Below are positions 5,713 to 63,633 of a stretch of DNA of 64,000 nt, in pieces; within the stretch, counting starts at the first letter, position 1; each line of letters starts with the position of its first letter. The notes below the pieces were generated by a model. The model did not search any database. It saw nothing but the letters and a program-made list of their open reading frames with translations, and was not told where the DNA came from. Source of the stretch: Escherichia coli. Its GTDB lineage: Bacteria > Pseudomonadota > Gammaproteobacteria > Enterobacterales > Enterobacteriaceae. The stretch lies in assembly GCA_902500005.1 (NCBI GenBank), contig GCA_902500005.1_3678.1; one strand, given 5' to 3'. Made by a program: the position numbers and the translations under genes.

Positions 5713-6264
5713 ATGATCAGAGCGCCATTAGATAATTTATTTCTTGAAAAGCTGGAGCTTGATGGTGTTGAGATCTTAATTGCTGCAAAGCTGGAGCTAC
5801 CGACAGGAACTGTCAGGGTGTGCTCAGGCACTGGTGTTGTAGTAATTGAGGGGCAACATTTTATAGGGATAGGTGGATCAGCAACGTTAACTGCTGTGTC
5901 TGAGAAAGATGCCACCAACTTCGGATCTGTGGTAGCGACATTGAACGGGTTTGATCCTAAGTATGTGGGTGATCTGCTAAAGACTGAGTATTCTGGTTGT
6001 CGTGCCACGTTGTACATTACCGCTATGGAGAATGGTCTGCCTGTTACAACTAATGGCTTGTTTGACGGCCTTATAACAGATATGGCTATTCAGACAGGTG
6101 AGAATAGCGCTTTGTCCATATCCATCTCTTCCATCTTTAACAGTTGGTTAAGAGGTTTTCCTTATCGGTACACGGAGGAAAGCCACAGCTCAAGAAACGA
6201 TAATGACAGATTTTTTAAATATGTGGATCAGGTGGCGAGCCGCCCGATCATTTGGGAGGTTTAA
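5713..6264 (+). CDS. putative tail-tip assembly protein (184 aa)
   Basis: Track start 5698 is TTG; in-frame ATG at 5713 sits 7 nt after GAGGA and 1 nt after upstream stop. Confidence 0.45.
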   Translation: MIRAPLDNLFLEKLELDGVEILIAAKLELPTGTVRVCSGTGVVVIEGQHFIGIGGSATLTAVSEKDATNFGSVVATLNGFDPKYVGDLLKTEYSGCRATLYITAMENGLPVTTNGLFDGLITDMAIQTGENSALSISISSIFNSWLRGFPYRYTEESHSSRNDNDRFFKYVDQVASRPIIWEV

Positions 6265-6689
6265 TGAGCACACACCCTCGTTTAGTGGATTGGCAAGAAA
6301 GATTGTGGAAAGTGTTTGACGAAGAGGCCACCATACCTTTTGAATGGGGATTCCACGATTGCTGCACCTTTGCAGCTAAGTGTGTTGATGCCCAATACGG
6401 AACAGATTTTCTTTCTAACTTCGAAGGAACGTATAAAACAGAGTTGGAAAGCAAAAGATGGTGCATGCTCCGTTTCAAAACCACACACCTGCCTACTATT
6501 TTTGATCTCTTTATGACTCGACTAGATACTCCTAAACAGGTTCAGCGTGGCGATATTGTTATCTTCGAAGGTCTGAACGGGCTCACCGCTGGTGTGTTCT
6601 GGAACAACCAGATTTGGGCGAAAGGTGATAAAGGGGTCTTTATGTTCGACATGAAAGATTCTATAGTTGTTGATGTCTGGAGGTATTAA
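6264..6689 (+). CDS. NlpC/P60-like tail-tip protein (similar to C-terminal half of lambda gpK)
   Basis: FEWGFHDCCTFAAKCVDAQY…GDIVIF matches lambda gpK FEHGVTDCYTLFRDAYH…GDVLL (recalled from memory); ATG overlaps upstream stop. Confidence 0.55.
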   Translation: MSTHPRLVDWQERLWKVFDEEATIPFEWGFHDCCTFAAKCVDAQYGTDFLSNFEGTYKTELESKRWCMLRFKTTHLPTIFDLFMTRLDTPKQVQRGDIVIFEGLNGLTAGVFWNNQIWAKGDKGVFMFDMKDSIVVDVWRY

Positions 6690-31521: not shown

Positions 31522-32562
31522 TTATTTAACGTGTTTGAAAATACCTGCCAACTCGGTCATTGTCATGCGGGTGGTCTTCATAAGATCTGTCATAGCTTTC
31601 TCCATAATTGGAGATACTACCATAAAGTTTCCTTTAGTGAAACCTTTATTCCAGTCGGTCACCAACAGGGGTTTAAGTCCAGCTCCAAGACGTTCACCAG
31701 TTAAAGCACAGCATTTGCGAATATACGAACTCTTAAATTGGCTGAACGACAGATCAACTTTCATACCTACATCGTAGAACGTTTGGCAATAGAAAGTGTA
31801 AGCTTTGGCAATCTCAACATCATCAGGTAGTGCAGGAACCTCTTCTGTAAGCTCCTCTTCGACCCCTTGAGTCTCTTTTTCCTCTTCATGCACCTGTTGC
31901 GTCATTTCTTCAATCTCTTCTGTGATAGGCTCGTTTACAATGTCGGAAATGTGCTTCTTGGGTGCACGATAAGTAACTTTAGACATCGGTAGCATATCTT
32001 CCTCCTCTTCTTCGTCAAAGAGTGCTAGTTTATCCTCTTCCGTTCCATATTGCAAGATGAAATCTTCAAAAGTATAATCACCTTTCAATTTCTCCATACG
32101 CTCTTCGCTCAGGTGGAGCATCATCTGCTGGACAATTTTTCGATCAGTTTCGTCTTTAATCAAGACTGCAGTCTTTTTATCTACCAGACAGTCCTTTAGA
32201 GAGTTGCATCTCAATCCCACCACACAACAGTTATCAACCGCATAAGGACCTTCATCATCTATCCGCTCCAGAGATGGGTAGAAAGGATTCCCCAGCCCGT
32301 TTTCATCTGTGTGCATGTCAAAAGGTATAAGGGTATAGTCGCATACTCCATCTCCTAAAAGTTTTTTACCAAATAGGAGGTATTCTTCCCATGACAGGTC
32401 GAACTCTATATCTCGTTTCCGTGCGTTATTCTGTTTGCGTCTATATTTTTTGAGCAAGCGCTCTAACTCTTCTGGTGTATAATATTTTTCAAGATTCATG
32501 AGTCGTCTCTCGTGCTCTGTAAGTGAAGAAATCGTATCAATTGTCTCAACAGATGTCAACAT
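31522..32562 (-). CDS. HNH-like (His-Me finger) domain protein with acidic linker (347 aa)
   Basis: …PSLERIDDEGPYAVDNCCVVGLRCNSLK resembles HNH endonuclease signature (from memory); poly-Glu linker; internal Met preceded by GAGGAGG. Confidence 0.45.
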   Translation of the reverse strand: MLTSVETIDTISSLTEHERRLMNLEKYYTPEELERLLKKYRRKQNNARKRDIEFDLSWEEYLLFGKKLLGDGVCDYTLIPFDMHTDENGLGNPFYPSLERIDDEGPYAVDNCCVVGLRCNSLKDCLVDKKTAVLIKDETDRKIVQQMMLHLSEERMEKLKGDYTFEDFILQYGTEEDKLALFDEEEEEDMLPMSKVTYRAPKKHISDIVNEPITEEIEEMTQQVHEEEKETQGVEEELTEEVPALPDDVEIAKAYTFYCQTFYDVGMKVDLSFSQFKSSYIRKCCALTGERLGAGLKPLLVTDWNKGFTKGNFMVVSPIMEKAMTDLMKTTRMTMTELAGIFKHVK

Positions 32563-32572
32563 CAAAAACGTG

Positions 32573-32601
32573 TTGACTTTACTCTAACTCCACAATATAG
32601 T
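32573..32601 (+). promoter_or_regulatory. sigma70-like promoter in divergent intergenic region
   Basis: TTGACT-17 nt-TATAGT, about 40 nt upstream of 32642 gene. Confidence 0.45.
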
Positions 32602-34870: not shown

Positions 34871-35140
34871 ATGTTATACCAGCAATATGAACTTCGTGCA
34901 GAAAAAGAGTTAAATTTTGACAAAGATATTCACAGATATTATTATGGGAAAGTTAGAGGGCAAGCAAGAAAGTGTACTCCAACACTCTTTTATGCCAGCA
35001 GACGACTAGCGCCAGAAGAGGCAACAGCAGAAAGGGTTGCGTACAACTGGAGAGTCACGTATGATATTGACAGATTCGATGTGATATCTGTTTTGGAAAA
35101 CTTTGAAAACACTTACACACAAGTAGAGGACTTTTACTAA
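34871..35140 (+). CDS. hypothetical protein (89 aa)
   Basis: ATG with GGAG RBS. Confidence 0.4.
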   Translation: MLYQQYELRAEKELNFDKDIHRYYYGKVRGQARKCTPTLFYASRRLAPEEATAERVAYNWRVTYDIDRFDVISVLENFENTYTQVEDFY

Positions 35141-36324
35141 TGTCAAGAAACGTATTCGAAAGTGGTCAAATCACTGTCCGTGAGTTGCCAGCTATTATTC
35201 AGTTTGCCCAACGTCATAGCCGATCTGTCCTAATTTTGGGACCAATGGGTGTGGGTAAAAGCCAGGTGATGAAGCAGATCGCTGATAATATGTTCGGTGA
35301 GCGAGATGACAACCTTGTTGACGTGCGACTGTCAGATAAAGATCCTGCCGACTTATCTGGGCTACCTATCCCTGTAGAAGCGGATGGAACTACACGTACA
35401 GTGTTTGCAATTCCAGAATTTTGGCCTGCGGATCCTGACTGGAGCGGAATTATCTTTCTGGATGAGCTCACTCATGCAGATAACTACCTGCAAAAGGTTG
35501 CAATGCAAATTATGCTTGACCACAAGTGCGGCACCTATGCATTCCCTAAGGGTTCTGTTTTTGTGGCTGCGGGTAACCGTTCTACAGATGGTGCGGTTCT
35601 TTCGGCGCTCGAAGCCCCTCTGGCTAACCGTTTTATCATTGTAGAGGTTACAAGCAATGCAGAGGTGTTTATTGAGGACTACGCATTCCTTAATGGGGTG
35701 CATTCCTCTGTAATTGGATATTTGAAAAGAGTTCCATCAGCTATTGATAATTATGAGGCTATGGCTGAGATTAATTGTCCATCTTTTGCCACACCACGAT
35801 CTTGGGTTGCTGCATCTGACATCTTGCACGATTTTGACAGCGGTATTATTTCTGACGCTATGGCCCGTGTTCTTCTGCAAGGTGCTATTGGTCACACTGC
35901 AGCGGTAGAGATCTGGACATACCACACCAAGAAACGCAATTTACCGGAAATCGGTCGGATTATGGCAGGTGGCTGCAAAGAATACGTAGGTCCTAAGCAG
36001 CCAGACATTTTGTGGATTCTTGGATCTGAAGGTTGTATCGCTATTCGTAATATGATGGAAAATGCAAGTATCTCAGACGAAGATCTTGTCAGCTGCGTGG
36101 CAAACTTCCTCGATTTCCTTTGGGAAAACTTCAAGGACGAGAACCGAGATTTTGTATTCTCAGTCTTTATGGCGATGATGAAACCTAATGCCTTAGGAAA
36201 TGCCTTGCTTATCGGTAAAGGGCGTGACAAGATTGTTGCTCAGCTGATCAAAGCATACCCAAACCTGATGAAGATTGTAAAAGAGTTTGGTGAAGAGTTT
36301 AGCGCCATTTTGGCTAAAGCTTAA
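35140..36324 (+). CDS. AAA+ ATPase, MoxR/CbbQ (AAA_5) type
   Basis: Walker A ILGPMGVGKSQ; Walker B IIFLDELTHA; sensor-1 VFVAAGNRS. Confidence 0.75.
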   Translation: MSRNVFESGQITVRELPAIIQFAQRHSRSVLILGPMGVGKSQVMKQIADNMFGERDDNLVDVRLSDKDPADLSGLPIPVEADGTTRTVFAIPEFWPADPDWSGIIFLDELTHADNYLQKVAMQIMLDHKCGTYAFPKGSVFVAAGNRSTDGAVLSALEAPLANRFIIVEVTSNAEVFIEDYAFLNGVHSSVIGYLKRVPSAIDNYEAMAEINCPSFATPRSWVAASDILHDFDSGIISDAMARVLLQGAIGHTAAVEIWTYHTKKRNLPEIGRIMAGGCKEYVGPKQPDILWILGSEGCIAIRNMMENASISDEDLVSCVANFLDFLWENFKDENRDFVFSVFMAMMKPNALGNALLIGKGRDKIVAQLIKAYPNLMKIVKEFGEEFSAILAKA

Positions 36325-36334
36325 GGGGGGTTGT

Positions 36335-36715
36335 ATGGCTAAAGTAGGTAAGCGGGGAAACTACCTGGTGGTATTGACCGAGGAGCCGGAGAAGGAGTAC
36401 GAATGCAGCTCCACTTGCGTGATCGATATCCGAGAAAAAGATGTAGATGAAATCTGGTTTAAAATATTGGACGCTTGCGATAGCAGTGATTATTTCTTCA
36501 TTTATGTCAACGATAAGGCTGGATTCTTCCATGACGACGGAGAGTTGCCGTATGAAATCTATGAACTTGTAGAGGCTTGCCATCGTGGAGATGCGGAGTT
36601 GTTTGGCCTACGGCTGAAAAGCGGTAAATTCTTCTATCAAGATGAGTGCATGAATCTTCATAACTTTGTAGAGGGAACTTGCAACGATGGAGAGATTTTG
36701 GCACACTACGATTAA
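36335..36715 (+). CDS. hypothetical protein (126 aa)
   Basis: ATG after AAGGGGGG (track start 36287 is TTG). Confidence 0.4.
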   Translation: MAKVGKRGNYLVVLTEEPEKEYECSSTCVIDIREKDVDEIWFKILDACDSSDYFFIYVNDKAGFFHDDGELPYEIYELVEACHRGDAELFGLRLKSGKFFYQDECMNLHNFVEGTCNDGEILAHYD

Positions 36716-36725
36716 TTTCTAAGAC

Positions 36726-36754
36726 CTCCCCCGCTTCGGCGGGGATTTTCTATT
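36726..36754 (+). terminator. rho-independent terminator
   Basis: cccccgcttcggcgggg hairpin + attttctattt. Confidence 0.5.
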
Positions 36755-36764
36755 TGGAGTCATT

Positions 36765-37265
36765 GTGAAAATTAAGATCTTTGCTATTATTTTGAGCGCA
36801 CTTTTATCGCTGCCTGTTGTTGCAGCACCAAAACAAAAAGTATATCATACTTGCAAGCCCTCAGATACTAAGGAAAACATTCTGGCATGCAATATCTACA
36901 GGGAGGCTAGAGGGGATGGCACGATGGGTATGCTGGCATCAGGGTTTGCCACACTAAACAGGAAATCTCACCCCAAATACCCAGACACTATAAGAAAGAT
37001 TGTCTACCAACCTAATCAGTTTTCGTGGACAAACCACGGCAAAACTTTTAAGGTGACAGAAAAAGATTCATGGGATCACGCTAAAAGTCTTGCAAAGATG
37101 CTTCTAAAGGTCTATAATAACAACCATGTTGCATACATGGCTATGGACATAACAGGTGGAGCAACACACTACCATACAACCAAAGTACGACCGAAATGGG
37201 CAAAAAAGATGCAGAGGACAGCTCAATTCGGGAGTCATATCTACTACAAGGAGCGCAATAAATGA
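36765..37265 (+). CDS. secreted SleB-like cell-wall hydrolase (166 aa)
   Basis: GTG start after GGAG; signal peptide MKIKIFAIILSALLSLPVVAAP; SleB-family motifs (IYREARGDG, ATLNRKSHP, VYQPNQFSWT). Confidence 0.55.
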   Translation: MKIKIFAIILSALLSLPVVAAPKQKVYHTCKPSDTKENILACNIYREARGDGTMGMLASGFATLNRKSHPKYPDTIRKIVYQPNQFSWTNHGKTFKVTEKDSWDHAKSLAKMLLKVYNNNHVAYMAMDITGGATHYHTTKVRPKWAKKMQRTAQFGSHIYYKERNK

Positions 37266-39244
37266 TTGTAAACAGTAATGAAACTAAAGCAGTACTAACC
37301 GGAAATATGGAGGTCACCAGGGGCTCAATTTCTCTGAACAAAGAGACTTTTGGGCTAATCATTAAAGGGATTTACGAAGATAAGGTGCTGGCAAGCTGCC
37401 GTGAACCAATCTTCAATGCTGTGGACTCTCATGTTGAGTCTGGACGGGGTGATGTACCGATCATCATTCACTCCCCTACAGACCTTGAACCATACTTCTT
37501 TGTGCAGGACGTTGGATTGGGCATGTCAGAAGAGATGGTCCGCAACACTTTCATGAACCTCGGGGAGTCAACCAAGCGCAACAGCAACGCTCTGGTAGGT
37601 AATAAAGGTGTTGGTTCAAAGGCTCCGTTCAGCATGGTGGACACTTTCGATGTTATCAGTGTGCACAATGGTGTTGAAAGCACATATCTATTGTTCTTGG
37701 ATCAGGGTATCCCAAACGTTACCAAGATCCGCGAGCGGAAGACTGAAGAGCACAACGGGGTAAAAGTTCAGTTCCATGTTAAGAAAGAGCATGTCCTGAA
37801 ATATCGCACTGCTATTGCGTCATGCCTACGCTATGCAAAGTTTCCGTTTACCGTTACCGACCCTATGACCAGTAAGATGCTGGAAGGTGACAAGGTTGAG
37901 GCGCAGTATCACTACGAGAAGGATGGTTGGAAAATGACCATCCTGAAAGGTTATACCAGCTCTGATGAGAGCCGTGTGGTGATGGGACACCAACCTTACC
38001 GCTCTAAGTTTCTGGAAACATTGACAGACTACCCTGCAATCTGTGTAGAGATCCCTATCGGGGATTGCAATATTAACCCTGGGCGCGAATGGACCATAGA
38101 GGGGCACGACGATGGTGGATTCCAAGAGCGTCTGGAGGCTTTTGTCAAAGAGGGTATCCGTCTTCGTGGGGCAGAAGTTGTTGCGGAATTGGAGACAGCA
38201 AAAACATCCTCAGAAGCACGTGAGATGATGAAGAACAGTGGAGTGTTCGGGCACATCTTCGGTAAGAATTTTATGTGGGACAGATGGGAAGAAACAGGGC
38301 TTGGCGACTTAGGCGATTGTGAAATTTTCGCTGGAGGCTTAAATAAAGGCCGCATAGGCTATGCTCGTTACGGAAAGTCGGAGTTCTTACGAGGTGTATA
38401 CCTTGTATTTAACGACGGAGATGGCAAATATAACCGAAATAAGTGTAACTATTTAAGCGAAATCACCGGACGCAACGTTTTCTATTGCCGGAACACGGAC
38501 CTAGTGAAAGAGTTTAAAGAGGCGGCACACCATCCGTTCTTTGCAGATACTGTCAAATTGTTATCAGAGCTCCCTCGCCGACCTGCGAAGAAAGGTGAAA
38601 CAAAAACTCATTACGAGCCAGGTTATTGGGTTAAAAAGCTTGAGAAGGATGGTTACTTCCGTCGTGAACGTATTACTAAGGCAGAGTTCAAGAAGATTAA
38701 GCACTGCATTCCTTATGAGGGTGATATCCAACGTGGAAGTTGTTGGCTGGGACAGCTGAGTAACATCTACCAGCAAAATTATGACCGTGTGCGTGCGGCA
38801 CTCCAGATTCCTGAAGGGGAAGACCTGTACCTGGTATCAGAATCCCGTCTGCTTTGGACTGATCCTGATTGCCAGTATGTTACAGAGAAAAATGTGGAAC
38901 ATTTGTTGAAAGAGGACGCCTGGAAATTCTTACTGACTCGCGCAGCAAATGAAACTTCATATGACAGCCTGTATAGACAATTAGGGAAAATTATCCCCAT
39001 GCAGGATTTTGGAAATTATCGGCCACATTTCCACAAGTGGGAAGGTAACACCGCGTGGAAGCACAGTGAGCTAAATCATCGTGCCAAAATCTTAATCGCC
39101 AACCGGGTTAAGTGCGGGAAGGCCTATATTGCAAGATTGGAAAAGAAATATCCACTTTTGAAGCATGTGGGCTTGAAATATTGGGACACTCCTGCTATGA
39201 TTGAATACCGTGAACTGATTGATACAAAGAATAACATCAAATAA
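37262..39244 (+). CDS. GHKL-superfamily ATPase (Hsp90/MORC-like), 660 aa
   Basis: Bergerat-fold motifs in order: N-box REPIFNAVDS, G1 VQDVGLGMS, G2 GNKGVGSKAPF; C-terminal two thirds unassigned. Confidence 0.6.
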   Translation: MIVNSNETKAVLTGNMEVTRGSISLNKETFGLIIKGIYEDKVLASCREPIFNAVDSHVESGRGDVPIIIHSPTDLEPYFFVQDVGLGMSEEMVRNTFMNLGESTKRNSNALVGNKGVGSKAPFSMVDTFDVISVHNGVESTYLLFLDQGIPNVTKIRERKTEEHNGVKVQFHVKKEHVLKYRTAIASCLRYAKFPFTVTDPMTSKMLEGDKVEAQYHYEKDGWKMTILKGYTSSDESRVVMGHQPYRSKFLETLTDYPAICVEIPIGDCNINPGREWTIEGHDDGGFQERLEAFVKEGIRLRGAEVVAELETAKTSSEAREMMKNSGVFGHIFGKNFMWDRWEETGLGDLGDCEIFAGGLNKGRIGYARYGKSEFLRGVYLVFNDGDGKYNRNKCNYLSEITGRNVFYCRNTDLVKEFKEAAHHPFFADTVKLLSELPRRPAKKGETKTHYEPGYWVKKLEKDGYFRRERITKAEFKKIKHCIPYEGDIQRGSCWLGQLSNIYQQNYDRVRAALQIPEGEDLYLVSESRLLWTDPDCQYVTEKNVEHLLKEDAWKFLLTRAANETSYDSLYRQLGKIIPMQDFGNYRPHFHKWEGNTAWKHSELNHRAKILIANRVKCGKAYIARLEKKYPLLKHVGLKYWDTPAMIEYRELIDTKNNIK

Positions 39245-39254
39245 GGAGACCAAG

Positions 39255-40460
39255 ATGATTTTCATCTACGAACATTTCAAAACCCGTAAAGAAGCACGAG
39301 ACCGCCGTGCAGAACTTGAGAAGAAGGGTTTCACATGTGCCATTGAGAAAGGCGACACAACCTGGACACTGGCAGTTGGTGCCCCAGAGTTGTTCGATCC
39401 TGACCGTGACAGCGTCTGCTACACCCGTGAGGATTTTGAAACCCGCGAAGAGGCCCGTTTATTTCGATACGGTCTGGAAGATAACGGTAAGTACGCTATG
39501 ATCTTAGATTTAGGCGAAGGTTCCGTTAAACGTTGGGGCGTGGTATACCCACTGTGTGTTGTTCACGGTGTGGGGTTCACTGGGGTAGCAATCAAGTCAG
39601 AAGAACCTTTAGTAGAAGTCAAAGATCCGGTGCTGGAGGTGGTGAGCAGTGTGTCTCAGCAACAGACTCGAAGCATCGAGCCTTTGGTAGTTATTTGTGG
39701 GGAACTCCTCCAGATCACCTGCAACGAAGGCATTTTTGAAATTCGCCGCAGCGAAAGTGAGGAAGTTTACCAGAAAGTCTTCGACCATATCTCTGTTCAG
39801 GAATATGACGAGGCAATTGGTGAAATCCTTGTCTGGTTGGAACGCAAGAATGAGTTCACCACACTTGCAGACAACCTGATCATGAAGGATGGTAAGCTCT
39901 ACTACTACGGTGTAGAGATGCGATCCACCATTGCAAAGAAAATTGAGAAAGATTATGCAGACGGAACACTGGATGACCGCTATGTGAAATTCCTAGTTCG
40001 CCTGCTACGCAATCCTTCTGCAAAATCTGTAAACATGCTCTACGATTTTATGCAGGCCAACGATATCCAGATTGCAGAAGATGGTCGAATCATTTGCTAC
40101 AAAGGGGTTCAGTTTAACGGCAGCAAGTGGGTGGATTGGCACAGTGGTAAAGTTCCACAATACCAGGGTGCTTTTGTATCCATGCCTCGTAACTTTGTAG
40201 AGGATGATCCGGAAGCTGCGTGCTCCTATGGCTTACACTGCGCCAGCAAAGAGTATGCAAAGAGCTACGGCACTGTAATGACTGTTATGGTTGATCCTGC
40301 AGATGTGGTTAGTGTGCCATACCAACACAATAGCGCTAAGTGCCGTGCATGCCGCTATGAGATTGTGGTAGCTCCGGAAGCACGCAAAGATGGAGACCCT
40401 ATTGAATATGTAGTTGATCGTGACGGTAACACTATCGACATTCTTTACGAGGAGGCGTAA
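39255..40460 (+). CDS. hypothetical protein with two N-terminal repeated small domains (401 aa)
   Basis: ATG after AAGGAGACC; residues 1-40 and ~55-95 are internal repeats (…TRKEARDRRAELEKKGFT… / …TREEARLFRYGLEDNGKY…). Confidence 0.5.
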   Translation: MIFIYEHFKTRKEARDRRAELEKKGFTCAIEKGDTTWTLAVGAPELFDPDRDSVCYTREDFETREEARLFRYGLEDNGKYAMILDLGEGSVKRWGVVYPLCVVHGVGFTGVAIKSEEPLVEVKDPVLEVVSSVSQQQTRSIEPLVVICGELLQITCNEGIFEIRRSESEEVYQKVFDHISVQEYDEAIGEILVWLERKNEFTTLADNLIMKDGKLYYYGVEMRSTIAKKIEKDYADGTLDDRYVKFLVRLLRNPSAKSVNMLYDFMQANDIQIAEDGRIICYKGVQFNGSKWVDWHSGKVPQYQGAFVSMPRNFVEDDPEAACSYGLHCASKEYAKSYGTVMTVMVDPADVVSVPYQHNSAKCRACRYEIVVAPEARKDGDPIEYVVDRDGNTIDILYEEA

Positions 40461-41830
40461 TGGAAAAAGGGCAGTATGATGTAGGCACAGATGCTGCCCT
40501 CGTTGCAATCATGAGCGGTGAGAATGTCTTCGTTTCAGGACCCGCAGGTTGTGGGAAGACGTACCTCATCAACATGATCCAGTCAATGTATGGAGACTCT
40601 TGCATAACGGTTGCCCCGACAGGGGTTGCCGCTTTAAACGTTAATGGAGCAACAGCACACCGAACCTTCGATCTTGCAGCAGGTGTGAGCATGGAGTCAG
40701 ACTGGACTGCAATAAGGGCAAAAACAGCAAAGCCTTTGAAAAGCAAGGCATTTACCATCCTAATTATCGATGAAATCTCTATGATCCGTGCTGATAAGTT
40801 TATAGAGATGGATAGGAAACTCCGCTTCCTTCGAAAAAATGACAAACCTTTCGGAGGCATACAGGTCATATTGTTTGGCGATTTTTACCAGGCACCTCCT
40901 GTTGTCTCTTCTATGGAGAAGGAAGCCTACTTCAACTTCTACCATACGGATCTGTGTTGCTATACCGAATCTTGGAAAGAGCTTGACCTCCACAACATAG
41001 CCCTAATAGATCAGTTCCGACAGGAGTCTATTCGATTTGCCACAATGCTCAACTGTGTTCGTGAAGGTCGCCGCATAAAAGAGGTTGTAGCAGAACTTAA
41101 TGCTCGCTGTTACAAAGGTGGTGTACCAACAGATGCTCTCACAATTTGCGCCACCAACAAACAAGCAGAGGAGGTGAACAGAAGGTTCTATGATGCCATC
41201 AACGCCCCAGAGAAGGTATACACTGGTGAAATGAAGGGTAAGTTTCCCTCCACCCTGCCAGTTGAGCAGGAGATGAAGTTGAAAATTGGCATGAAAGTTA
41301 TGATAACCGCCAACGATGTTGACCCGACGCACAAAGTACCTTATTATGTTAACGGAACACGTGCCACAATTGTTAAATTTAAGAACAAGGCAGTGGTGGT
41401 AGAGCTTGAAGATGGAACTCAGGTTGACATAGAGCAGAGGTTGTGGGAGAATAACGAGTATAAGCCATCTCAGAGATACAACATTGCAGAAAGGAAGATG
41501 GAGAAGTTTATAGAGAGGGTAGTGATTGGGTCATACAAGCAACTTCCTCTGAAATCTGGGTATGCCGTAACATCTCATAAAAGTCAAGGACTTACGCTAG
41601 ATTGTTACAACCTAGACCTTGGAAAGAACGGAGCTTTCTCTCCTGGGATGACGTATGTTGCTTTGAGTCGAGTTAAGACAATACAAGGAATAAACTTGTT
41701 GCGTCCACTAAGAGAAGTTGACATTATTGTTGACCCGCGAGTCGTAGAGTTTTACAATACAACATTCCCTGACTTAGACAAAATTGTCAGGAAAGATTTT
41801 GAAACCAGAGCAGAAGAGGGGGACGTATGA
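40460..41830 (+). CDS. SF1B DNA helicase, Dda/RecD/Pif1-like
   Basis: Walker A GPAGCGKTY; motif II IIDEISMI; motif V VTSHKSQGLTLD. Confidence 0.8.
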   Translation: MEKGQYDVGTDAALVAIMSGENVFVSGPAGCGKTYLINMIQSMYGDSCITVAPTGVAALNVNGATAHRTFDLAAGVSMESDWTAIRAKTAKPLKSKAFTILIIDEISMIRADKFIEMDRKLRFLRKNDKPFGGIQVILFGDFYQAPPVVSSMEKEAYFNFYHTDLCCYTESWKELDLHNIALIDQFRQESIRFATMLNCVREGRRIKEVVAELNARCYKGGVPTDALTICATNKQAEEVNRRFYDAINAPEKVYTGEMKGKFPSTLPVEQEMKLKIGMKVMITANDVDPTHKVPYYVNGTRATIVKFKNKAVVVELEDGTQVDIEQRLWENNEYKPSQRYNIAERKMEKFIERVVIGSYKQLPLKSGYAVTSHKSQGLTLDCYNLDLGKNGAFSPGMTYVALSRVKTIQGINLLRPLREVDIIVDPRVVEFYNTTFPDLDKIVRKDFETRAEEGDV

Positions 41831-48790: not shown

Positions 48791-49633
48791 AAATAACATT
48801 GTGGCTTCATAGAGTGATCTATGTCGAATAACCTCTTTAATCGACGGGAAAGCTAAGTTGACTTTTACACCTGAGTATGGTAAAAGCTCAATATGCTAAT
48901 CCGCAGCGAAGACTAAAGGGGTGTAGTTAAAATGGCTAGAACAGCTGATTATCACGGGTATACCGTGTTTGATGATGGAACAATACCTTTATCGAAACGT
49001 GATCATACAACAATGTTTTGTTTTGATAATGGTAGAGGTTACCTTTGCGTAACCATGCTAATCGAGGGGAAGCAGTGCACAAAAGGTGTCCACCACCTGG
49101 TTGCTGAATGCTTTGTATCAAACCCAGATCCTGAAAGGCTCACATGGGTGAACCATAAGGATGGGAATAAGTACAACAATGCATACTGGAACCTGGAATG
49201 GACCACCCCTGGTGGAAATATCAAGCACGCCTATGATAATGACCTCAGAGTAAGGCCAGTTGGTGAGTATAATGCCAACGCTGTGCTGACAGAAGATGAG
49301 GTAATAGAGATTTGCGAACTGTTGCAGAGTGGTCTACGACAATGCGAGATTAGGGATCTTGGATATCCTTATGAGACCGTCAGGGCTATAAAGCAAAGAA
49401 GACAGTGGAAACATATCTCTAAAAACTACACCTGGTAGTAACGTTCAGAGACTATCGAAAGCATAGCGCCAACATAAATTGGTGCGAAGAAGCGAGTAGA
49501 GTAGGCCAGCAAGTGCGGTCGAAATGGGAGGTGCCTTGGTAACAAGGTAGTGAGATAGTCCGATCCATACAGGAAACTGTATGGCTGTGCACGTAATGGT
49601 GCGGGGTAGCTTAACGACCTACCTGAACTATTG
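48791..49633 (+). mobile_element. group I self-splicing intron interrupting the DNA polymerase gene, carrying an HNH homing endonuclease ORF
   Basis: Conserved elements P-like gacgggaaag (48842), Q aatccgcagc (48898), R gttcagagacta (49443), S agatagtcc (49553; P7 gacta/tagtc pairing); 5' exon ends in U, intron ends in G; IGS gtgg (48801) pairs with exon end ccaT; splicing joins …IIYYH to DEYQLQV… restoring motif C. Confidence 0.75.
48932..49438 (+). CDS. HNH homing endonuclease (HNH_3-type), intron-encoded
   Basis: …VHHLVAECFVSNPDPERLTWVNHKDGNKYNNAYWNLEWTT… classic HNH motif; ORF sits between intron Q and R elements. Confidence 0.8.
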   Translation: MARTADYHGYTVFDDGTIPLSKRDHTTMFCFDNGRGYLCVTMLIEGKQCTKGVHHLVAECFVSNPDPERLTWVNHKDGNKYNNAYWNLEWTTPGGNIKHAYDNDLRVRPVGEYNANAVLTEDEVIEICELLQSGLRQCEIRDLGYPYETVRAIKQRRQWKHISKNYTW

Positions 49634-53166: not shown

Positions 53167-54437
53167 TGAGCGTTATTCAACAATTCGCTAACCCGATGAA
53201 TCCGCGTGAAACTGTTTTACTAGCTCACGGCATGATTAAACGTGTCAGCATCAAGCCTATCAAAGGTGCTGATCCTACAACAGGTATTAAAACCACTGTG
53301 TGGCAAGGTAAGAAAATTGAATCCAGCCACACCATCTCTTTACTGATTTCTGAACTGGATTCCTCTGATAACCTACTTCAAGGTGGTGAAGAAGTTTGGA
53401 TCAGTATGGGCGATAAGCTGCTTAAACCGGGTCATCAAGACTCTGTCTCTGTTAAAATTGATGACAAGTGGGAAACCGTAACGCCAGGATGGATCGTAAA
53501 TATCCCTTTGAAGGCAAACGAGCATAACGGTAAGACCTACTACAAAGGCTCACTGGCTAAGATGGTTAAGCTGGGTGCAGGAGAGGCTCCAGCAGCGACT
53601 CAGCAGCAAAAACAGCAACAAGGTGCACAATCACAAGGCCAGAAGCAGAAACCTCAGCAGAATGCCAATCAGGACGTTTTACGCATCTATGGTGATGTGA
53701 CTCAGATTGTTGGCAACGTGGTTACTGTTAATGACCACAAGATTGGTGAAGGTGCTATGGTTGTAACTGATGAGCAGCTTAAAGACCTGGTGGTAGGTGG
53801 TCGTGTTGCAGCCATTGTTGACAAAGACACCGGAAACATTATCAGTGGTTTCAAAGCCTATCCTCCTAAGGCAGAGAACGGTACTCAAGGCTCCGGTGGC
53901 AAGCGTAAATCCTCTTACGACCCTATCGGTGTGGAAACGGGGCATAGCATCAATGCGTTGCAGATCATCCTGGATCGCGGGTTTAAGGTAGACGACCCAC
54001 TGGGCGTGGCTAAAACACTGCACGTAGTCACCATTGAGCTTAAGAAAGAGTATGCTCAAGCCACCAACCGAACTGAAGATGAAGTAGGTGCCAGTGTCGG
54101 TAATGCGGTGTTGAACGCTTGTCGCCGTATTGACAAGAAAACGAAAGTTGATGATTTTGCAGTGGCAATTACTGCAGAAGCAAAAGATGTCTTGACTAAT
54201 CTAGCTGAGCCGTTGTACGATTGGATCAAGAACGGTGCTGAGTCCACTGACCATCAAGAACCTCAGGCTGCCAAACAGGAAGCAGCTCCACAGCAAAACA
54301 CTGTAGACGCTCCTCCTGTAAATGATGCGGAAGATGACCCAATGGATCAGAATCCAGCACAGTATGACTTCTGTGATGACATACCTTTCGCTCCGGTGGG
54401 TTTGCAATATGGCAAAAGTAGAATCCACGCATTGTAA
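53166..54437 (+). CDS. putative single-stranded DNA-binding protein (SSB-like acidic tail)
   Basis: Gln-rich low-complexity linker; …DFCDDIPF near C-terminus resembles the bacterial SSB tail DDDIPF but is followed by 15 extra residues. Confidence 0.4.
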
Positions 54438-55032
54438 GAGGTGCATCAAGTGCGGAGAGGTGAAAAACCTCTCCGAGTTCTACAAACACCCAAAGATGTC
54501 TGACGGTCATCTTAATAAGTGCAAAGAGTGTTGTAAGAAGGCCAGCAGGGAGGCTGACCAATTTTCCCACGACTCTTCAGAAAAAGGTGTGATCCGCGTG
54601 TTGTACAAGACTCAAAAGTGCAACAGTAAGAAGAGAGGTCACCCGCCTCCGACTTACACCAAAAAGGAGTTTAAGGAGTGGCTATACCTGAACGGTTACA
54701 AAGAGTTGTATGATCAGTGGGTAGCCAGCGGATACGACAAAAGGAAAAAGCCTTCTTGTGATAGGATAGATGATTTCAAAGGGTACTCTTTTGATAATAT
54801 CCGTTTAACGACCTGGGGAGAAAATAAAGACAAGCAGACGGAGGATATTCTGTTGCATAGAAGCACCAGCGGTAGACGGTGTAAAAATGTAAGGAGGCTG
54901 GACATGAATGGTAACGTTCTTAAAGAATGGGTATCCCACAATTCTTGTAGAAGAGAAACCGGAATATGTGTTGATTACTACATTCATGAAAAAATTCCAG
55001 CTCCCGATGGATACCTCTATGAATACTTTTAG
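54409..55032 (+). CDS. zinc-ribbon nuclease-like protein (possible HNH/EndoVII-type homing endonuclease)
   Basis: CKRCIKCG…H…DGH…CKECC zinc-binding cluster; C-terminal …[14 protein letters not shown]-like tail; ATG 54409 overlaps SSB-like gene 3' end. Confidence 0.35.
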
Positions 55033-58058: not shown

Positions 58059-58248
58059 GCTTAAATCTGCATGGAACATCGCTGTGGGGGACGAGATCCG
58101 TATCCCAGGTGGAAAGACCATTATGAAAATATCTCGTATCGAGTACGAAGGTGATCGTGTATTTCATATCTTTGCAGAAGATGGTCGAGAAATTTATATA
58201 CAGGCAGGCTCTCACATCTATATTCGTAAGAAAGGGGAGGACAAATGA
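58051..58248 (+). CDS. hypothetical protein (65 aa)
   Basis: ATG after AAGGAAGG; overlaps upstream stop. Confidence 0.35.
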   Translation: MFKLKSAWNIAVGDEIRIPGGKTIMKISRIEYEGDRVFHIFAEDGREIYIQAGSHIYIRKKGEDK

Positions 58249-58574
58249 CAGAGATCATCATTTCAACTGCAGGGTATGTATTCCTGACAATCATTGCGCT
58301 GGCTATTCTGGTGGCGGTGTATGGATTTGTTATCCTTCCTATTCTTGAGACATTTAGTTTGTGTCGGTGTTGGAGAAAAGCTTACGGTCCACAACCATGG
58401 AAGGACTGGCCCCACCTGGTGCGCTTAGCGTTCTCTTATGCTTACGATCACTCCAGTAGTGCATGCATAACCGGATACCACGCCCACAACTGGAGCTGGG
58501 AAGGGTTGAGGAAATGGAATGTTACAAAGACCATACCTCTGCGCATGTACAAACCTAAAAACAAAGACAACTGA
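58245..58574 (+). CDS. small membrane protein (109 aa)
   Basis: ATG after AGGGGAGG; hydrophobic segment YVFLTIIALAILVAVYGFVILPIL. Confidence 0.4.
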   Translation: MTEIIISTAGYVFLTIIALAILVAVYGFVILPILETFSLCRCWRKAYGPQPWKDWPHLVRLAFSYAYDHSSSACITGYHAHNWSWEGLRKWNVTKTIPLRMYKPKNKDN

Positions 58575-60981: not shown

Positions 60982-61013
60982 AACCACAGTTGAGCGGAAA
61001 AGGAGGCTTAAAG

Positions 61014-61133
61014 ATGAGCACTACACGCCAGCACACAAAGGTAACCATCATCGTTTGCATCATTGGGTACATCCTGGCGCAAATGTTGATGGGTAGCGCC
61101 AACGGTGTCGCAAAATTTTTCTTAAACTTTTAA
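61014..61133 (+). CDS. small hydrophobic protein (39 aa)
   Basis: ATG 7 nt after AAGGAGG; not in ORF track (below its size cutoff); predicted TM segment. Confidence 0.3.
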   Translation: MSTTRQHTKVTIIVCIIGYILAQMLMGSANGVAKFFLNF

Positions 61134-61963: not shown

Positions 61964-62317
61964 ATGATCAGCGGGGCAAGTTTTATTATTGGCGCTATTG
62001 CTACGGCTTTAATTGTAAATAAGATCCAGGATAAAAAGGAAAGAGGAAGTACCGCCCTTGCAGAATATCCATTTTGGGCATTCAACGATAACGAAGATTA
62101 TATTATAAAGTATAAAAATAAAGAAGGTGACCAAGTAACACCGCGACCGATCCCGGCTTACAAAATGCAGGAAACACTATACCGCCTGGAGGCGGGGGGC
62201 GCAAAAATTGTAGACTTTTGGGGATACGACCACACAGATCAGGAAGTTATAAAGCGCCGTATCCGGGCTATTCAGGCCAATATTGAAGTTAGCAAGGGGG
62301 GAATATATGAAAATTAA
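61964..62317 (+). CDS. hypothetical protein with N-terminal TM segment (117 aa)
   Basis: ATG after AAAGGAGAAAG. Confidence 0.45.
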   Translation: MISGASFIIGAIATALIVNKIQDKKERGSTALAEYPFWAFNDNEDYIIKYKNKEGDQVTPRPIPAYKMQETLYRLEAGGAKIVDFWGYDHTDQEVIKRRIRAIQANIEVSKGGIYEN

Positions 62318-63056: not shown

Positions 63057-63194
63057 ATGACCACCGTTAACATTACCGCAGGTTACAATTTATCTTTCGA
63101 CGTGCTGACCGACGAACAAAAAGAAAAAGCCGTTGAAATGGTCCGCGAAAGAGAAGAACACAGCGGGGATAACTTTTTTGCAGAAAGAGGATAG
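63057..63194 (+). CDS. small acidic protein (45 aa)
   Basis: ATG after TAGGAG; not in ORF track (below its size cutoff). Confidence 0.3.
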   Translation: MTTVNITAGYNLSFDVLTDEQKEKAVEMVREREEHSGDNFFAERG

Positions 63195-63199
63195 ACACA

Positions 63200-63484
63200 A
63201 TGAAAAAGATGATCGCAGTAGTTGCCCTGGTTGTTGGACTTAATGCGCCTGTAATGGCTAAAGAGCTGGCAAAAGAGGTTGATCTAACGGATATCCATGC
63301 CGTCAATCAAATCGGGGTTACTTATCGCTTATGCCTTGCCGCTAAAACTTTTAATGACGGTACAACAGAGTACTACGGATTCGAGGGTATCCGGTGCGGT
63401 GAGCTTGCTCGCGACCTTAAGGAAGATCCAGACCTGGAGGATCTACCCATAACCGTGAACGGTAAAGCTTACGTTAACCGTTAA
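63200..63484 (+). CDS. secreted small protein with signal peptide (94 aa)
   Basis: MKKMIAVVALVVGLNAPVMA-KE: Sec-type signal with AxA-like site. Confidence 0.45.
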   Translation: MKKMIAVVALVVGLNAPVMAKELAKEVDLTDIHAVNQIGVTYRLCLAAKTFNDGTTEYYGFEGIRCGELARDLKEDPDLEDLPITVNGKAYVNR

Positions 63485-63633
63485 CCGTGAAAAAGATAAT
63501 CATTACCTTGGGGATTGTGGCGGGATCGCTGGCGCTCTTTCCCCTTATGGTTAGATATGTGCTGATCAGTATTGTCCTGGTGGTCAGTGATCTACTAGAA
63601 ACGGTTGGCACCTTGTTTTAAAGAGCGATAAAA

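Follow-up and report, generated by a model that had tools for sequence, protein, structure and literature searches.

Which task in the phage life cycle falls to a putatively exported cell wall hydrolase whose gene lies apart from any lysis genes? This question is raised by an open reading frame at positions 36765-37265 (plus strand) of the 64,000-nt stretch of DNA analyzed here, which we refer to as the window. The preliminary description of the locus had left it between an exported endolysin and a periplasmic remodeller of peptidoglycan. The reading that we favor, and to which we give about an even chance, is that the product is an accessory periplasmic lytic transglycosylase and not the main endolysin.

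The window derives from a Vequintavirus (rV5-like) with 99% identity to Escherichia phage MaxTheCat, and positions 35000-40500 share 97-99% nucleotide identity with Vequintavirus genomes. The reading frame encodes 166 aa from a GTG start codon, which follows a GGAG Shine-Dalgarno sequence (36756-36759, plus strand) by five nucleotides. Sequence comparison identifies it as a Vequintavirus orthologue of rV5 gene 2, given in rV5 Table S3 as a "cell wall hydrolase" of 166 aa with a pI of 10.0 and a PF07486 domain. rV5 gene 2 and its Vequintavirus orthologues, including MaxTheCat bas57_0064, are also 166 aa long and show 98-99% protein identity; the MaxTheCat orthologue shares the GTG start, and rV5 has the same upstream hairpin (t003) and the same 4-nt overlap with rIIA as the window. 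We see no substantive difference among them and regard them as one gene from separate isolates. A hydrolase at least 95% identical to the window protein is encoded in 116 phage records (identities of 95-99%), in many of which its label is cell wall hydrolase or SleB. The gene is already known, having been annotated since the rV5 genome, with its signal peptide and subfamily conservation noted in 2020, and as a sequence feature 36765-37265 adds no novelty.

The Pfam family Hydrolase_2 (PF07486, SleB/CwlJ) was the sole domain matched in a Pfam search of the protein, at residues 51-161 and over profile positions 2-100 of 100 (70.4 bits against a gathering cut-off of 27; E 2.1e-19), and PHROG 938 matched with an E value of 1.6e-27. 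The SleB entries 4f55 and 4fet of the PDB were matched by sequence (E 2e-6), and these same chains were the only ones below E 1e-3 when an AF2 model of the hydrolase (pLDDT 88.8) was compared with the PDB by Foldseek (target-normalised TM 0.72-0.79, rmsd 2.7-3.0). Alignment with the YGESRGE stretch of 4f55/4fet places the catalytic Glu of SleB, in the motif Y-x-E-x-R-G, at Glu47 (codon GAG, 36903-36905, plus strand). Among family representatives gathered by an exhaustive phmmer search, Glu47 is present in all 150 aligned, R66 and H158 are each found in 151 of 151 aligned sequences, and conservation is 90% or higher at each of Q85, F86, S87, W88, and W145; the window protein keeps all of these residues.

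The likeness to the catalytic domain of Bacillus SleB, a germination-specific lytic transglycosylase, extends to the fold, the catalytic Glu motif, and the Pfam family, whereas sequence identity is 19-24% and the N-terminal PG_binding_1 domain of SleB was not found ahead of the window protein's catalytic domain, where residues 1-50 consist of the signal peptide and a short Cys-containing linker. The spore_SleB equivalog of NCBIfam (TIGR02869) was not reached (48.3 bits, with the cut-off at 236.5), its profile being matched only in the C-terminal catalytic part (positions 82-201). SleB requires the muramic-delta-lactam of the spore cortex; E. coli peptidoglycan lacks this feature, and E. coli forms no spores. 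Since the host makes no spores, the role of the hydrolase must differ from that of SleB in germination, and because muramic-delta-lactam is missing from E. coli, activity on its normal peptidoglycan is assumed here.

Residues 1-20 (MKIKIFAIILSALLSLPVVA; 36765-36824, plus strand) form a predicted signal peptide according to an n/h/c heuristic, and this segment has an AF2 pLDDT of about 54. The N-terminus, MKIK-IFAIILSALLSL-PVVA|AP, combines an n-region of charge +2 with an uncharged stretch at residues 5-22 (mean Kyte-Doolittle hydropathy 2.35), an h-region of about 16-17 residues rich in I, L, F, and V (33% G/A/S/T), and a c-region that can be read heuristically as V-x-A at -3/-1 preceded by Pro at -4. 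On these features, signal peptidase I most likely cuts at A20|A21 (VVA|AP); a cut after A21 is disfavored because Pro would then fall at +1. The protein thus carries a predicted export signal, which the cytoplasmic canonical endolysins are without, and by the same heuristic it does not have the uncleaved, weakly hydrophobic, G/A/S/T-rich transmembrane domain of a SAR endolysin. A hydrophobic N-terminal stretch is present in 129 of the 150 nearest family representatives, cleavable-looking signal peptides occur in the homologues of T5, PVP-SE1, Certrevirus, and Stephanstirmvirinae, and an 81%-identical homologue, P0002, has the signal peptidase I site S-F-A|A. The predicted mature protein of 146 aa (36825-37262, plus strand; 16.9 kDa, pI about 10) would comprise Cys30/Cys42 and the Hydrolase_2 domain (nt 36915-37247). 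In 120 of 151 aligned sequences the mature part has two or four Cys residues, and C30 is always accompanied by C42 (27 of the 27 aligned sequences that carry C30); this co-occurrence and the even Cys counts fit periplasmic disulfides. Both features on which the preliminary description had relied therefore hold up, the Sec-type signal peptide as a prediction from the heuristic and the family-wide hydrophobic N-termini, and the SleB-family motifs through the Pfam, PHROG, and PDB sequence matches and the AF2 fold.

The preliminary description had also placed the gene away from any recognisable lysis cassette and had reported no holin or canonical endolysin in the window. Our searches agree: the endolysin, spanins, and putative holin of a relative gave no tblastn match within the window, and a hydropathy scan of the window revealed no convincing holin. 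In Vequintavirus relatives that are 97-99% identical over the region, a lambda-R-type endolysin (62% identity to lambda lysozyme; E 3.5e-56 against 1am7 for the MaxTheCat protein) is encoded about 64 kb off on the opposite strand, and an i-/o-spanin (Rz/Rz1-type) pair adjoins the terminase gene; both map outside the window. The hint that the hydrolase is the endolysin of the phage arose because the window limits hide the endolysin found in these relatives. The endolysin of these relatives belongs to the LysECP26 family, which has been shown to be lytic and to lyse Gram-negative cells in vitro. Enzymes of the lambda R/LysECP26 type are also expected to cut the glycan strand as transglycosylases, but their fold is unrelated to that of the hydrolase and they have no signal peptide.

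For rV5-like phages, no holin is securely known. Neither PHROG nor Pfam supports a function for the "putative holin" bas57_0112 of the BASEL collection, whose region is absent from the window. A two-TMD holin candidate adjoining or overlapping the hydrolase gene, as in Certrevirus, is likewise absent, the next gene being rIIA. The tail-module "cell wall hydrolase protein" at 6264-6686 was rejected as a lysin, as it is a DUF6950 protein with no recognisable muralytic domain. The hydrolase gene does not lie with a holin or spanin gene, nor apparently in a late unit; its neighbors are a 126-aa open reading frame and rIIA, and the predicted promoters are of the sigma-70 type. Of the canonical endolysin-holin cassette elsewhere that the preliminary description had named as evidence against its own reading, the relatives supply the endolysin but no holin cassette. 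What stands of that reading is the class of periplasmic remodeller or exported lysin; the suggestion that it might be the phage's endolysin is not supported, the relatives having the lambda-R-type enzyme.

The surroundings of the gene are those of the rV5 "genes 10-1" transcription unit, with rIIA overlapping and rIIB next, and this replaces the earlier placement inside a replication gene cluster. A MoxR-like ATPase gene (35140-36324, plus strand; PHROG 1297 "ATPase," E 2e-110), named MoxR ATPase in MaxTheCat and rV5, has matches to AAA_5 and other AAA-type Pfam families that all remain under their cut-offs. It is followed by the counterpart of rV5 gene 3 (36335-36715, plus strand; phrog_12370, E 1e-88), which encodes a 126-aa acidic protein with no Pfam or NCBIfam match and is the immediate upstream neighbor of the hydrolase gene, so that the ATPase gene is one gene farther upstream. 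The hydrolase had been said to lie between AAA_5 and GHKL ATPase genes; this is accurate on the downstream side, where the GHKL ATPase is rIIA, but upstream the 126-aa frame intervenes. Table S3 of the rV5 paper pairs gene 3 with T5.083, which we attribute to a row shift, as T5.083 matches gene 2 (E 6e-25) and gives E 0.3 with gene 3. Downstream are rIIA (37262-39244, plus strand; E 1e-124 to phrog_612 "RIIA lysis inhibitor" and E 2e-8 to Pfam HATPase_c_3), rIIB (39255-40460, plus strand, the start being the one annotated in MaxTheCat; E 1e-61 to phrog_609 "RIIB lysis inhibitor"), and a PIF1/RecD-like helicase gene.

The rIIA start codon (ATG, 37262-37264) overlaps the hydrolase stop codon (TGA, 37263-37265) in an ATGA at 37262-37265 (plus strand). 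This 4-nt overlap is also found in MaxTheCat and rV5, and the arrangement suggests translational coupling of hydrolase and rIIA. In PVP-SE1 the SleB-like gene has stayed near rIIA, with a 54-aa open reading frame between them. The SleB-like loci examined in Stephanstirmvirinae, T5, and Pakpunavirus have no adjacent rII genes, and Certrevirus is without rII genes according to the CB7 paper. As the rII linkage is confined to two related genera, it may be simple inherited synteny.

In the rightward unit with the hydrolase gene, the promoter predicted first is a sigma-70-type sequence (TTGACT-N17-TATAGT; 32573-32601, plus strand), read in the sequence against rV5 Table S4 as the equivalent of rV5 P010. 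A pattern search for rV5 P010 that allowed 3 mismatches gave no match, since the spacer differs at more positions. Comparison with rV5 also places a divergent P011-like promoter at about 32530-32558 on the opposite strand, and a candidate sigma-70-like promoter (TTGACA-17-TATTAT, 11/12) lies inside the unit, upstream of the ATPase gene (34917-34945, plus strand). Individual promoter matches carry little weight, because the 12 promoter-like sites in the region equal the 11.8 expected from shuffles.

Between the 126-aa frame and the hydrolase gene is a G+C-rich, intrinsic-terminator-like hairpin with a T-run (CCCCGC-TTCG-GCGGGG; 36729-36755, plus strand). Its sequence matches rV5 t003 exactly, and the value listed for t003 is -16 kcal/mol. 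Folded in context, it reaches -15.5 kcal/mol with an unexceptional z of -1.1. It sits 10-20 nt upstream of the hydrolase gene, and a promoter between hairpin and start was ruled out, as merely some 10-20 nt are available. We also rejected the idea that RNA structure upstream sequesters the ribosome-binding site; the GGAG is weakly paired in the minimum-free-energy fold, but z is -1.1. In rV5, the unit "genes 10-1-238-164" contains gene 2 and has consensus sigma-70 promoters. The T5 homologue is located among early promoters, and the PAK_P3 homologue belongs to a nucleic-acid-metabolism region, a type for which transcription at the middle time point has been described. With a terminator hairpin and a promoter of the sigma-70 type upstream, the hydrolase gene is, to judge by gene layout and predicted promoters, probably expressed early or middle.

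Homologues in other phages place the gene in a wider setting. The CB7 paper of 2020 describes Certrevirus CB7_83 as having a signal peptide and as conserved in all genera of Vequintavirinae, and states that it was toxic when expressed in E. coli ("data not shown"). CB7_83 and its counterpart in Enterobacter phage F4M1E share with the window protein the signal peptide, the Hydrolase_2 domain, and an equivalent Cys pair at about 49% identity, whereas the next gene in Certrevirus, in place of rIIA/rIIB, overlaps the hydrolase gene and encodes a holin candidate of 65 aa with two TMDs. The canonical lysin varies within Vequintavirinae, being lambda-R-like in Vequintavirus, an M15 peptidase in CB7 and W70, and a modular endolysin (gp146) in PVP-SE1, while the SleB-like gene is present in all genera. 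Our literature search found no published enzymatic activity, export, cleavage, or phenotype for a Vequintavirinae member.

Beyond the subfamily, T5.083 (T5p081, "cell wall hydrolase homolog") is 40% identical over the domain (E 6e-25), has an N-terminal signal peptide (…SSQA|SH), and lies far from the T5 lysis genes; it differs from the window protein in its length of 149 aa, its Cys pair C28/C66, and the lack of rII genes nearby. T5-like phages have a lysozyme and a holin besides the SleB-like gene. The T5 st0 deletion was considered as a test of dispensability, but it ends two genes short and retains T5p081, which makes it uninformative. PAK_P3 gp151 and PaoP5_032 are also Hydrolase_2 proteins, at about 35% identity, whose genes belong to a nucleic-acid-metabolism cluster, next to those for DNA ligase and dCMP deaminase. 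The N-terminus of PaoP5_032, with its acidic n-region, resembles an uncleaved anchor, the protein has four Cys residues, and PaoP5 encodes an endolysin-holin-spanin cassette (genes 079-081) separate from gene 032. The authors of the PAK_P3 study proposed an AMG-like role for gp151, which would account for the build-up of cell wall precursors during infection. An N-terminally hydrophobic SleB-like enzyme encoded apart from the lysis genes is thus found in T5, Pakpunavirus (PaoP5), and Phapecoctavirus, and Nankokuvirus PAK_P3 joins them by cluster position. A search of plasmids for a homologue of the secretion-system type returned distant "cell wall hydrolase" genes only (alphaproteobacterial, Acinetobacter, and other replicons). 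It also returned a single phage genome that had been entered among the plasmids.

A precedent is the Tgl protein of Kayvirus (Staphylococcus K-like phages), a lytic-transglycosylase-like extra endolysin that works in a similar manner without being homologous. Sec exports it, and its expression in E. coli leads to lysis if the signal peptide is present, its toxicity and lysis having been reported to depend on that peptide. Its early-type promoter is used by the RNA polymerase of the host, and the phage also has a major endolysin that is late. Unlike the window protein, it has IsaA/SceD-like transglycosylase motifs, serves a phage of a Gram-positive host, and is encoded near lysK.

In the accessory role that we favor, a 166-aa precursor would be exported by the host Sec system and cut by signal peptidase I after Ala20 to give a basic, soluble, 16.9-kDa periplasmic enzyme with a single Hydrolase_2 domain, in which Cys30 and Cys42 probably form one disulfide. 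Its homology with SleB suggests a lytic transglycosylase in which Glu47 alone would supply the catalytic acid/base; MurNAc-GlcNAc bonds in the sacculus would be cut, leaving 1,6-anhydro-MurNAc ends. InterPro text still speaks of an amidase. The gene would be co-transcribed with rIIA, rIIB, and replication genes from sigma-70 promoters through read-through of the terminator hairpin; these promoters, the read-through, and the GTG start together suggest that synthesis of the hydrolase is probably early or middle and at a low level. The principal endolysin would be the cytoplasmic lambda-R-type enzyme encoded elsewhere, working with the spanins, and the hydrolase would thin or nick the sacculus independently of a holin, making final lysis faster or more robust. 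What we infer here is export, the cleavage site, lytic-transglycosylase action on the peptidoglycan of E. coli, when and how strongly the gene is expressed, and the physiological role. An early, soluble periplasmic lytic transglycosylase could carry a risk of premature lysis, which counts against this model. We take premature lysis to be avoided because expression is assumed to be low, given the GTG start and the terminator, and because E. coli has been reported to tolerate the overproduction of periplasmic lytic transglycosylases in part.

Nowhere does the available evidence separate a lysis helper from other periplasmic roles, and a remodeller without a lysis purpose is possible, although we hold it to be on the improbable side. 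Such an enzyme might, as an auxiliary metabolic function, release or recycle muropeptides or wall precursors, open the wall locally for phage complexes that span the envelope, such as spanins, or alter it against superinfection, perhaps together with the membrane-associated rIIA/rIIB proteins. It would account for SleB-like genes lying in early/middle nucleic-acid-metabolism regions, apart from lysis genes, in five phage lineages, for their retention in Vequintavirinae while the canonical lysin changes type, and for the ATGA overlap conserved in Vequintavirus and the adjacency in PVP-SE1, and it is close to the AMG-like role put forward for gp151. The possibly inherited rII synteny of two related genera weakens the link to rIIA/rIIB, and the toxicity of CB7_83 fits a lytic enzyme just as well. 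The opposite possibility, that the hydrolase is the real endolysin, exported by Sec without a holin and restrained until membrane depolarisation in the manner of Lys44 of Oenococcus phage fOg44, with the lambda-R-like enzyme secondary, seems unlikely to us. It would combine a signal peptide and an intact muralytic domain with the want of a known secure holin in rV5-like phages, and PHROG 938 as well as several records give homologues the name "endolysin." Those labels are automatic annotations, however; every close relative examined has a lambda-R-type endolysin and spanins, the full cassette of PaoP5 and the lysozyme and holin of T5-like phages coexist with SleB-like genes, and an early/middle unit behind a terminator and a GTG start speak against a main lysin.

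Tethering would explain how an early wall enzyme avoids premature lysis, and the N-terminal segment might stay uncleaved as a SAR or signal-anchor sequence that keeps the enzyme at the membrane, inactive until release, like P1 Lyz and R21. Some homologues are indeed rich in Ala, Ser, and Thr (65% G/A/S/T in the stretch of Certrevirus F4M1E), and PaoP5_032 looks anchored behind its acidic n-region. For the window protein we nevertheless think this quite improbable, as its h-region of about 16-17 residues is strongly hydrophobic with 33% G/A/S/T, and Pro at -4 followed by V-V-A|A makes a standard signal peptidase I site, as S-F-A|A does in P0002. Known SAR endolysins are of the T4-lysozyme/R21 type and are not known to include a Hydrolase_2 protein, which also argues against it. 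That the domain is catalytically dead, a vestigial peptidoglycan-binding module, or that the gene has no function in E. coli is very improbable; the missing muramic-delta-lactam would agree with it, but all strongly conserved positions (E47, R66, Q85-F86-S87-W88, W145, and H158) are kept, the protein is conserved across the 116 phage records and the whole subfamily, and the CB7 homologue is toxic on expression.

The accessory transglycosylase thus keeps its place as our preferred reading for this phage. A broader idea, which we regard as doubtful, is that across large virulent Gram-negative phages the exported SleB-like enzyme is an early/middle "envelope-conditioning" factor and not a lysis protein, a periplasmic lytic transglycosylase that would remodel the sacculus during infection independently of a holin, and that in rV5-like phages it is translationally coupled to rIIA/rIIB as one module of wall remodelling and membrane protection. 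The phage groups that this idea takes in are Vequintavirinae, T5-like phages, Pakpunavirus/Nankokuvirus, Phapecoctavirus, and some jumbo phages. If it were true, the payoffs would be the release of muropeptides or wall precursors, room for envelope-spanning complexes, or superinfection exclusion.

Many unrelated large lytic phages of Gram-negative hosts keep a secreted SleB-type enzyme in their early/middle blocks despite a conventional endolysin. The role of this exported enzyme may have a bearing on lysis timing, and possibly on enzybiotic design, because such a lysin would reach the wall through Sec.

The hydrolase gene (36765-37265, plus strand) encodes 166 aa between a GTG start and a TGA stop, exactly the frame listed in the preliminary description, with GGAG five bases upstream of the start codon. 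The N terminus reads MKIK-IFAIILSALLSL-PVVA|APKQK, with two lysines in the n-region of the signal peptide, an uncharged stretch at residues 5 to 22 whose composition (mean Kyte-Doolittle 2.35, Gly, Ala, Ser, and Thr just 33%) marks a strongly hydrophobic core, and a c-region with a helix-breaking Pro at -4 and V-x-A at -3/-1. Signal peptidase I rejects Pro at +1, and since a cut after Ala21 would leave Pro there, cleavage is likely to fall at Ala20|Ala21. An 81%-identical metagenomic homologue has S-F-A|A at the matching position. The predicted mature protein has 146 aa, 16.9 kDa, and a pI of about 10.

Pfam Hydrolase_2 (PF07486, "Cell Wall Hydrolase") covers residues 51 to 161, scoring 70.4 bits (threshold 27), and PHROG 938 is matched at E 1.6e-27. 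Among solved structures, the sequence matches SleB catalytic domains 4f55 and 4fet alone; the Glu of their YGESRGE aligns with Glu47 (YREARGD). An AlphaFold2 model, with a mean pLDDT of 88.8 and low values confined to residues 1 to 20, retrieved SleB catalytic domains alone below E 1e-3 from the PDB (target-normalised TM 0.72 to 0.79) and 46 predicted viral structures from BFVD, many named SleB or cell wall hydrolase. The signal-peptide-like N terminus, the Hydrolase_2 match, and the modeled SleB fold thus support the proposed exported SleB-type enzyme. The protein shares the catalytic-domain fold and the aligned Glu with SleB but lacks the N-terminal peptidoglycan-binding domain, which profile searches did not find; on this ground, and with a spore_SleB equivalog score of 48 bits against a cut-off of 236.5, orthology to SleB was rejected.

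When 1.84 billion cluster representatives were searched exhaustively with phmmer, 11,355 matched at E <= 1e-3, 2,961 of them at <= 1e-10. When the hydrolase was aligned with the best 150 of these matches (151 sequences), Glu47 was found in 150/150 and R66 and H158 each in 151/151, while Q85-F86-S87-W88 and W145 each reached 90% conservation or more. All of these residues are kept in the window protein. A hydrophobic signal-like stretch begins 129 of the 150 best family representatives, exactly 2 or 4 cysteines follow the signal region in 120 of the 151 aligned sequences, and Cys30, never alone, is accompanied by Cys42 in 27/27. These patterns fit exported periplasmic enzymes with disulfide bonds, and they make a signal peptide followed by Hydrolase_2 the normal layout of a large family rather than a peculiarity of this gene.

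From 35000 to 40500 the window shares 97 to 99% identity with over 100 Vequintavirus (rV5-like) genomes, the best match being Escherichia phage MaxTheCat (BASEL Bas57; 99.2%), and the whole window aligns to MaxTheCat 21990-88850. A protein at least 95% identical to the hydrolase occurs in 116 phage records, many labeled "cell wall hydrolase" or "SleB." The hydrolase corresponds to gene 2 of rV5, listed in the rV5 paper as a "cell wall hydrolase" (166 aa, 19,052 Da, pI 10.0, PF07486). The Pectobacterium phage CB7 paper reports SleB-like homologues in all Vequintavirinae genera and a signal peptide on that of CB7; its authors met toxicity when expressing the CB7 protein in E. coli (data not shown) and described the homologue in CR3 as previously "implicated in host lysis." A 2024 Septuagintavirus paper repeats the annotation. 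With these papers and labeled records, the finding is already known at the annotation level: the gene is widely conserved and well annotated, and the literature already covers its domain, signal peptide, and odd location.

In Additional file 3 (Table S3) of the rV5 paper, T5.083 appears as a homologue in the gene 3 row (126 aa) but belongs with gene 2 (BLASTP E 6e-25 to gene 2, 0.3 to gene 3). Our search of a plasmid collection found distant homologues only, plus one rV5-like genome: GenBank CP057073.1 (PLSDB "Escherichia coli plasmid," 137,565 bp, an rV5-like size) carries a 99.4%-identical copy beside an "ATP-binding protein," and there is little doubt that this is a Vequintavirus genome mislabeled as a plasmid. 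Sixteen "Campylobacter phage" records (including MG065659, MG065635, MG065646, and MG065656; C5, C12, D1, and C3 among the names) with C. jejuni as stated host share 97% identity with E. coli Vequintavirus DNA across the hydrolase region, and it looks as if the host labels are wrong or the preparations were mixed.

Inside the split DNA polymerase gene, whose MaxTheCat CDS is a two-piece join, the window is about 575 bp longer than MaxTheCat (alignment gap 48850-49500). A 168-aa ORF there (48932-49438, plus strand) has a weak HNH_3 match below cut-off (17.7 bits) and probably encodes an intron-borne homing endonuclease. A second insertion relative to MaxTheCat, of about 640 bp, holds a Cys-rich 236-aa ORF (54322-55032, plus strand; CKRCIKCG…CKECCKK), which has no Pfam match and may be another mobile endonuclease-type gene.

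Directly upstream of the hydrolase gene lies a gene for an acidic 126-aa protein with no assigned function (36335-36715, plus strand), preceded by an ATPase gene (35140-36324, plus strand) that matches AAA models below threshold only and is called a MoxR ATPase in relatives. Directly downstream on the same strand is rIIA (phrog_612, E 1e-124; HATPase_c_3); beyond it come rIIB and a PIF1/RecD-like helicase gene, with primase/helicase and DNA polymerase genes further along. Of the flanking AAA_5 and GHKL ATPase genes first described, the GHKL gene therefore adjoins the hydrolase as rIIA, while the AAA-type gene is one gene further up.

The rV5 authors placed the genes of this region in one transcription unit, "genes 10-1-238-164," with predicted promoters near the sigma-70 consensus; the counterpart of their P010 is at 32573-32601 (plus strand, TTGACT-N17-TATAGT). 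A terminator-like hairpin identical in sequence to rV5 t003 (CCCCGCTTCGGCGGGG plus a T-run; 36729-36755, plus strand; -16 kcal/mol in rV5) ends only about 10 nt ahead of the hydrolase start codon. Because a promoter cannot fit between them, read-through presumably supplies the hydrolase and rIIA/rIIB; this and the GTG start suggest low-level expression of the early or middle class. The hydrolase stop codon overlaps the rIIA start as ATGA (37262-37265, plus strand), so that expression of rIIA/rIIB seems to depend on both hairpin read-through and hydrolase translation, a coupling that appears to have drawn no earlier comment in the literature. Folding of RNA around the hydrolase ribosome-binding site was not significant, and promoter-like sites in the region were at chance level.

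The preliminary description found no holin or canonical endolysin in the window, and this stands: tblastn with the MaxTheCat endolysin, spanins, and BASEL "putative holin" was negative there, and a hydropathy scan of all small ORFs gave single-TMD early proteins only. The implication that the hydrolase could be the sole lysin, an endolysin inside the replication cluster, does not survive. At the start of its record, MaxTheCat has i- and o-spanin genes adjoining the one for the large terminase (confirmed by PHROG Rz-like families) and, at 124.5-125.0 kb on the opposite strand, the 156-aa endolysin bas57_0207 (E 3.5e-56 to lambda lysozyme 1am7). This belongs to the LysECP26/rV5 Gp89 family, with 62% identity to lambda R, and purified LysECP26 lysed 29/29 Gram-negative strains tested. 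The "putative holin" bas57_0112, a label without Pfam or functional PHROG support, lies in the roughly 4.7 kb (MaxTheCat 83,044-87,724) missing from the window phage (junction about 63180-63190). Small plus-strand ORFs at 63200-63484, 63487-63621, 58245-58574, 60990-61133, and 61964-62317 carry a signal peptide (94 aa, MKKMIAVVALVVGLNAPVMA|KE) or one strong TMD, predicted features of uncharacterized envelope-targeted early proteins. In the tail module, the gene at 6264-6686 (plus strand) is 100% identical to a MaxTheCat "cell wall hydrolase protein"; its product matches DUF6950 (PF22262) only, with no recognizable muralytic domain, and the label may be unfounded.

A similar separation recurs elsewhere. 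T5 encodes a 149-aa homologue (T5.083/T5p081; 40% identical, with a signal peptide) amid early promoters, and T5-like phages have their lysozyme and holin genes apart from it; the deletion in T5 st0 ends just before this gene and is uninformative on dispensability. In Pseudomonas phage PaoP5 (Pakpunavirus), an endolysin-holin-spanin cassette follows the tail fibre genes, and the SleB-like gene stands apart, beside DNA ligase. Phapecoctavirus genomes combine a PF00959 lysozyme with a PF07486 protein, and PA5oct gp368, a further SleB-like example, is absent from virions. In Enterobacter phage F4M1E (Certrevirus), a 65-aa protein hydrophobic at both ends (L007:3926-4123) overlaps the SleB-like gene by 4 nt directly downstream, the place taken by rIIA in Vequintavirus; the CB7 paper names the protein at this position a class II holin candidate.

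We see about an even chance that the hydrolase is an accessory periplasmic lytic transglycosylase that weakens the sacculus in advance and is not the main endolysin. The precursor would be exported by Sec and cut after Ala20, and the mature enzyme would fold in the periplasm, probably with a Cys30-Cys42 disulfide, and cleave glycan strands via Glu47. Since no holin is needed, it could act during infection, and damage would stay sublethal through low expression and the documented partial tolerance of E. coli to extra periplasmic lytic-transglycosylase activity. Once holin, endolysin, and spanins fire, lysis of the weakened sacculus would be faster or more reliable. As a precedent, Kayvirus Tgl comes closest in function: this secreted transglycosylase-like "additional endolysin" has an early-type promoter and exists alongside the late LysK.

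Remodeling unrelated to lysis, or an AMG-type role, is possible though unlikely; PAK_P3 gp151, with the same domain, lies within a nucleic-acid-metabolism cluster, and its authors thought that it might account for wall-precursor accumulation in infection. A true holin-independent endolysin is improbable: a lambda-R-like endolysin with spanins is encoded in MaxTheCat. Slightly less probable again is a signal-arrest-release or anchored form, which would retain the hydrophobic stretch; here that stretch ends in a predicted cleavage site. PaoP5_032 (L010:3324-3884), the Hydrolase_2 homologue of Pakpunavirus, begins METLEALVLSILLAFIGMFLDMEYSR, with an acidic n-region and no obvious signal peptidase site, which suggests an anchor in the membrane and not a cleavable signal. 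The protein also has four Cys, and its topology may differ from that of the enterobacterial-phage enzymes. That the protein is inactive we regard as very improbable, with Glu47 and its conserved partners all in place.

Vequintavirinae genera differ in their conventional lysin: Vequintavirus has a lambda-R-like enzyme, CB7 and W70 have an M15 peptidase, and PVP-SE1 has a modular endolysin. The SleB-like gene persists while the lysin type changes, which argues for a conserved role apart from that of the terminal endolysin.
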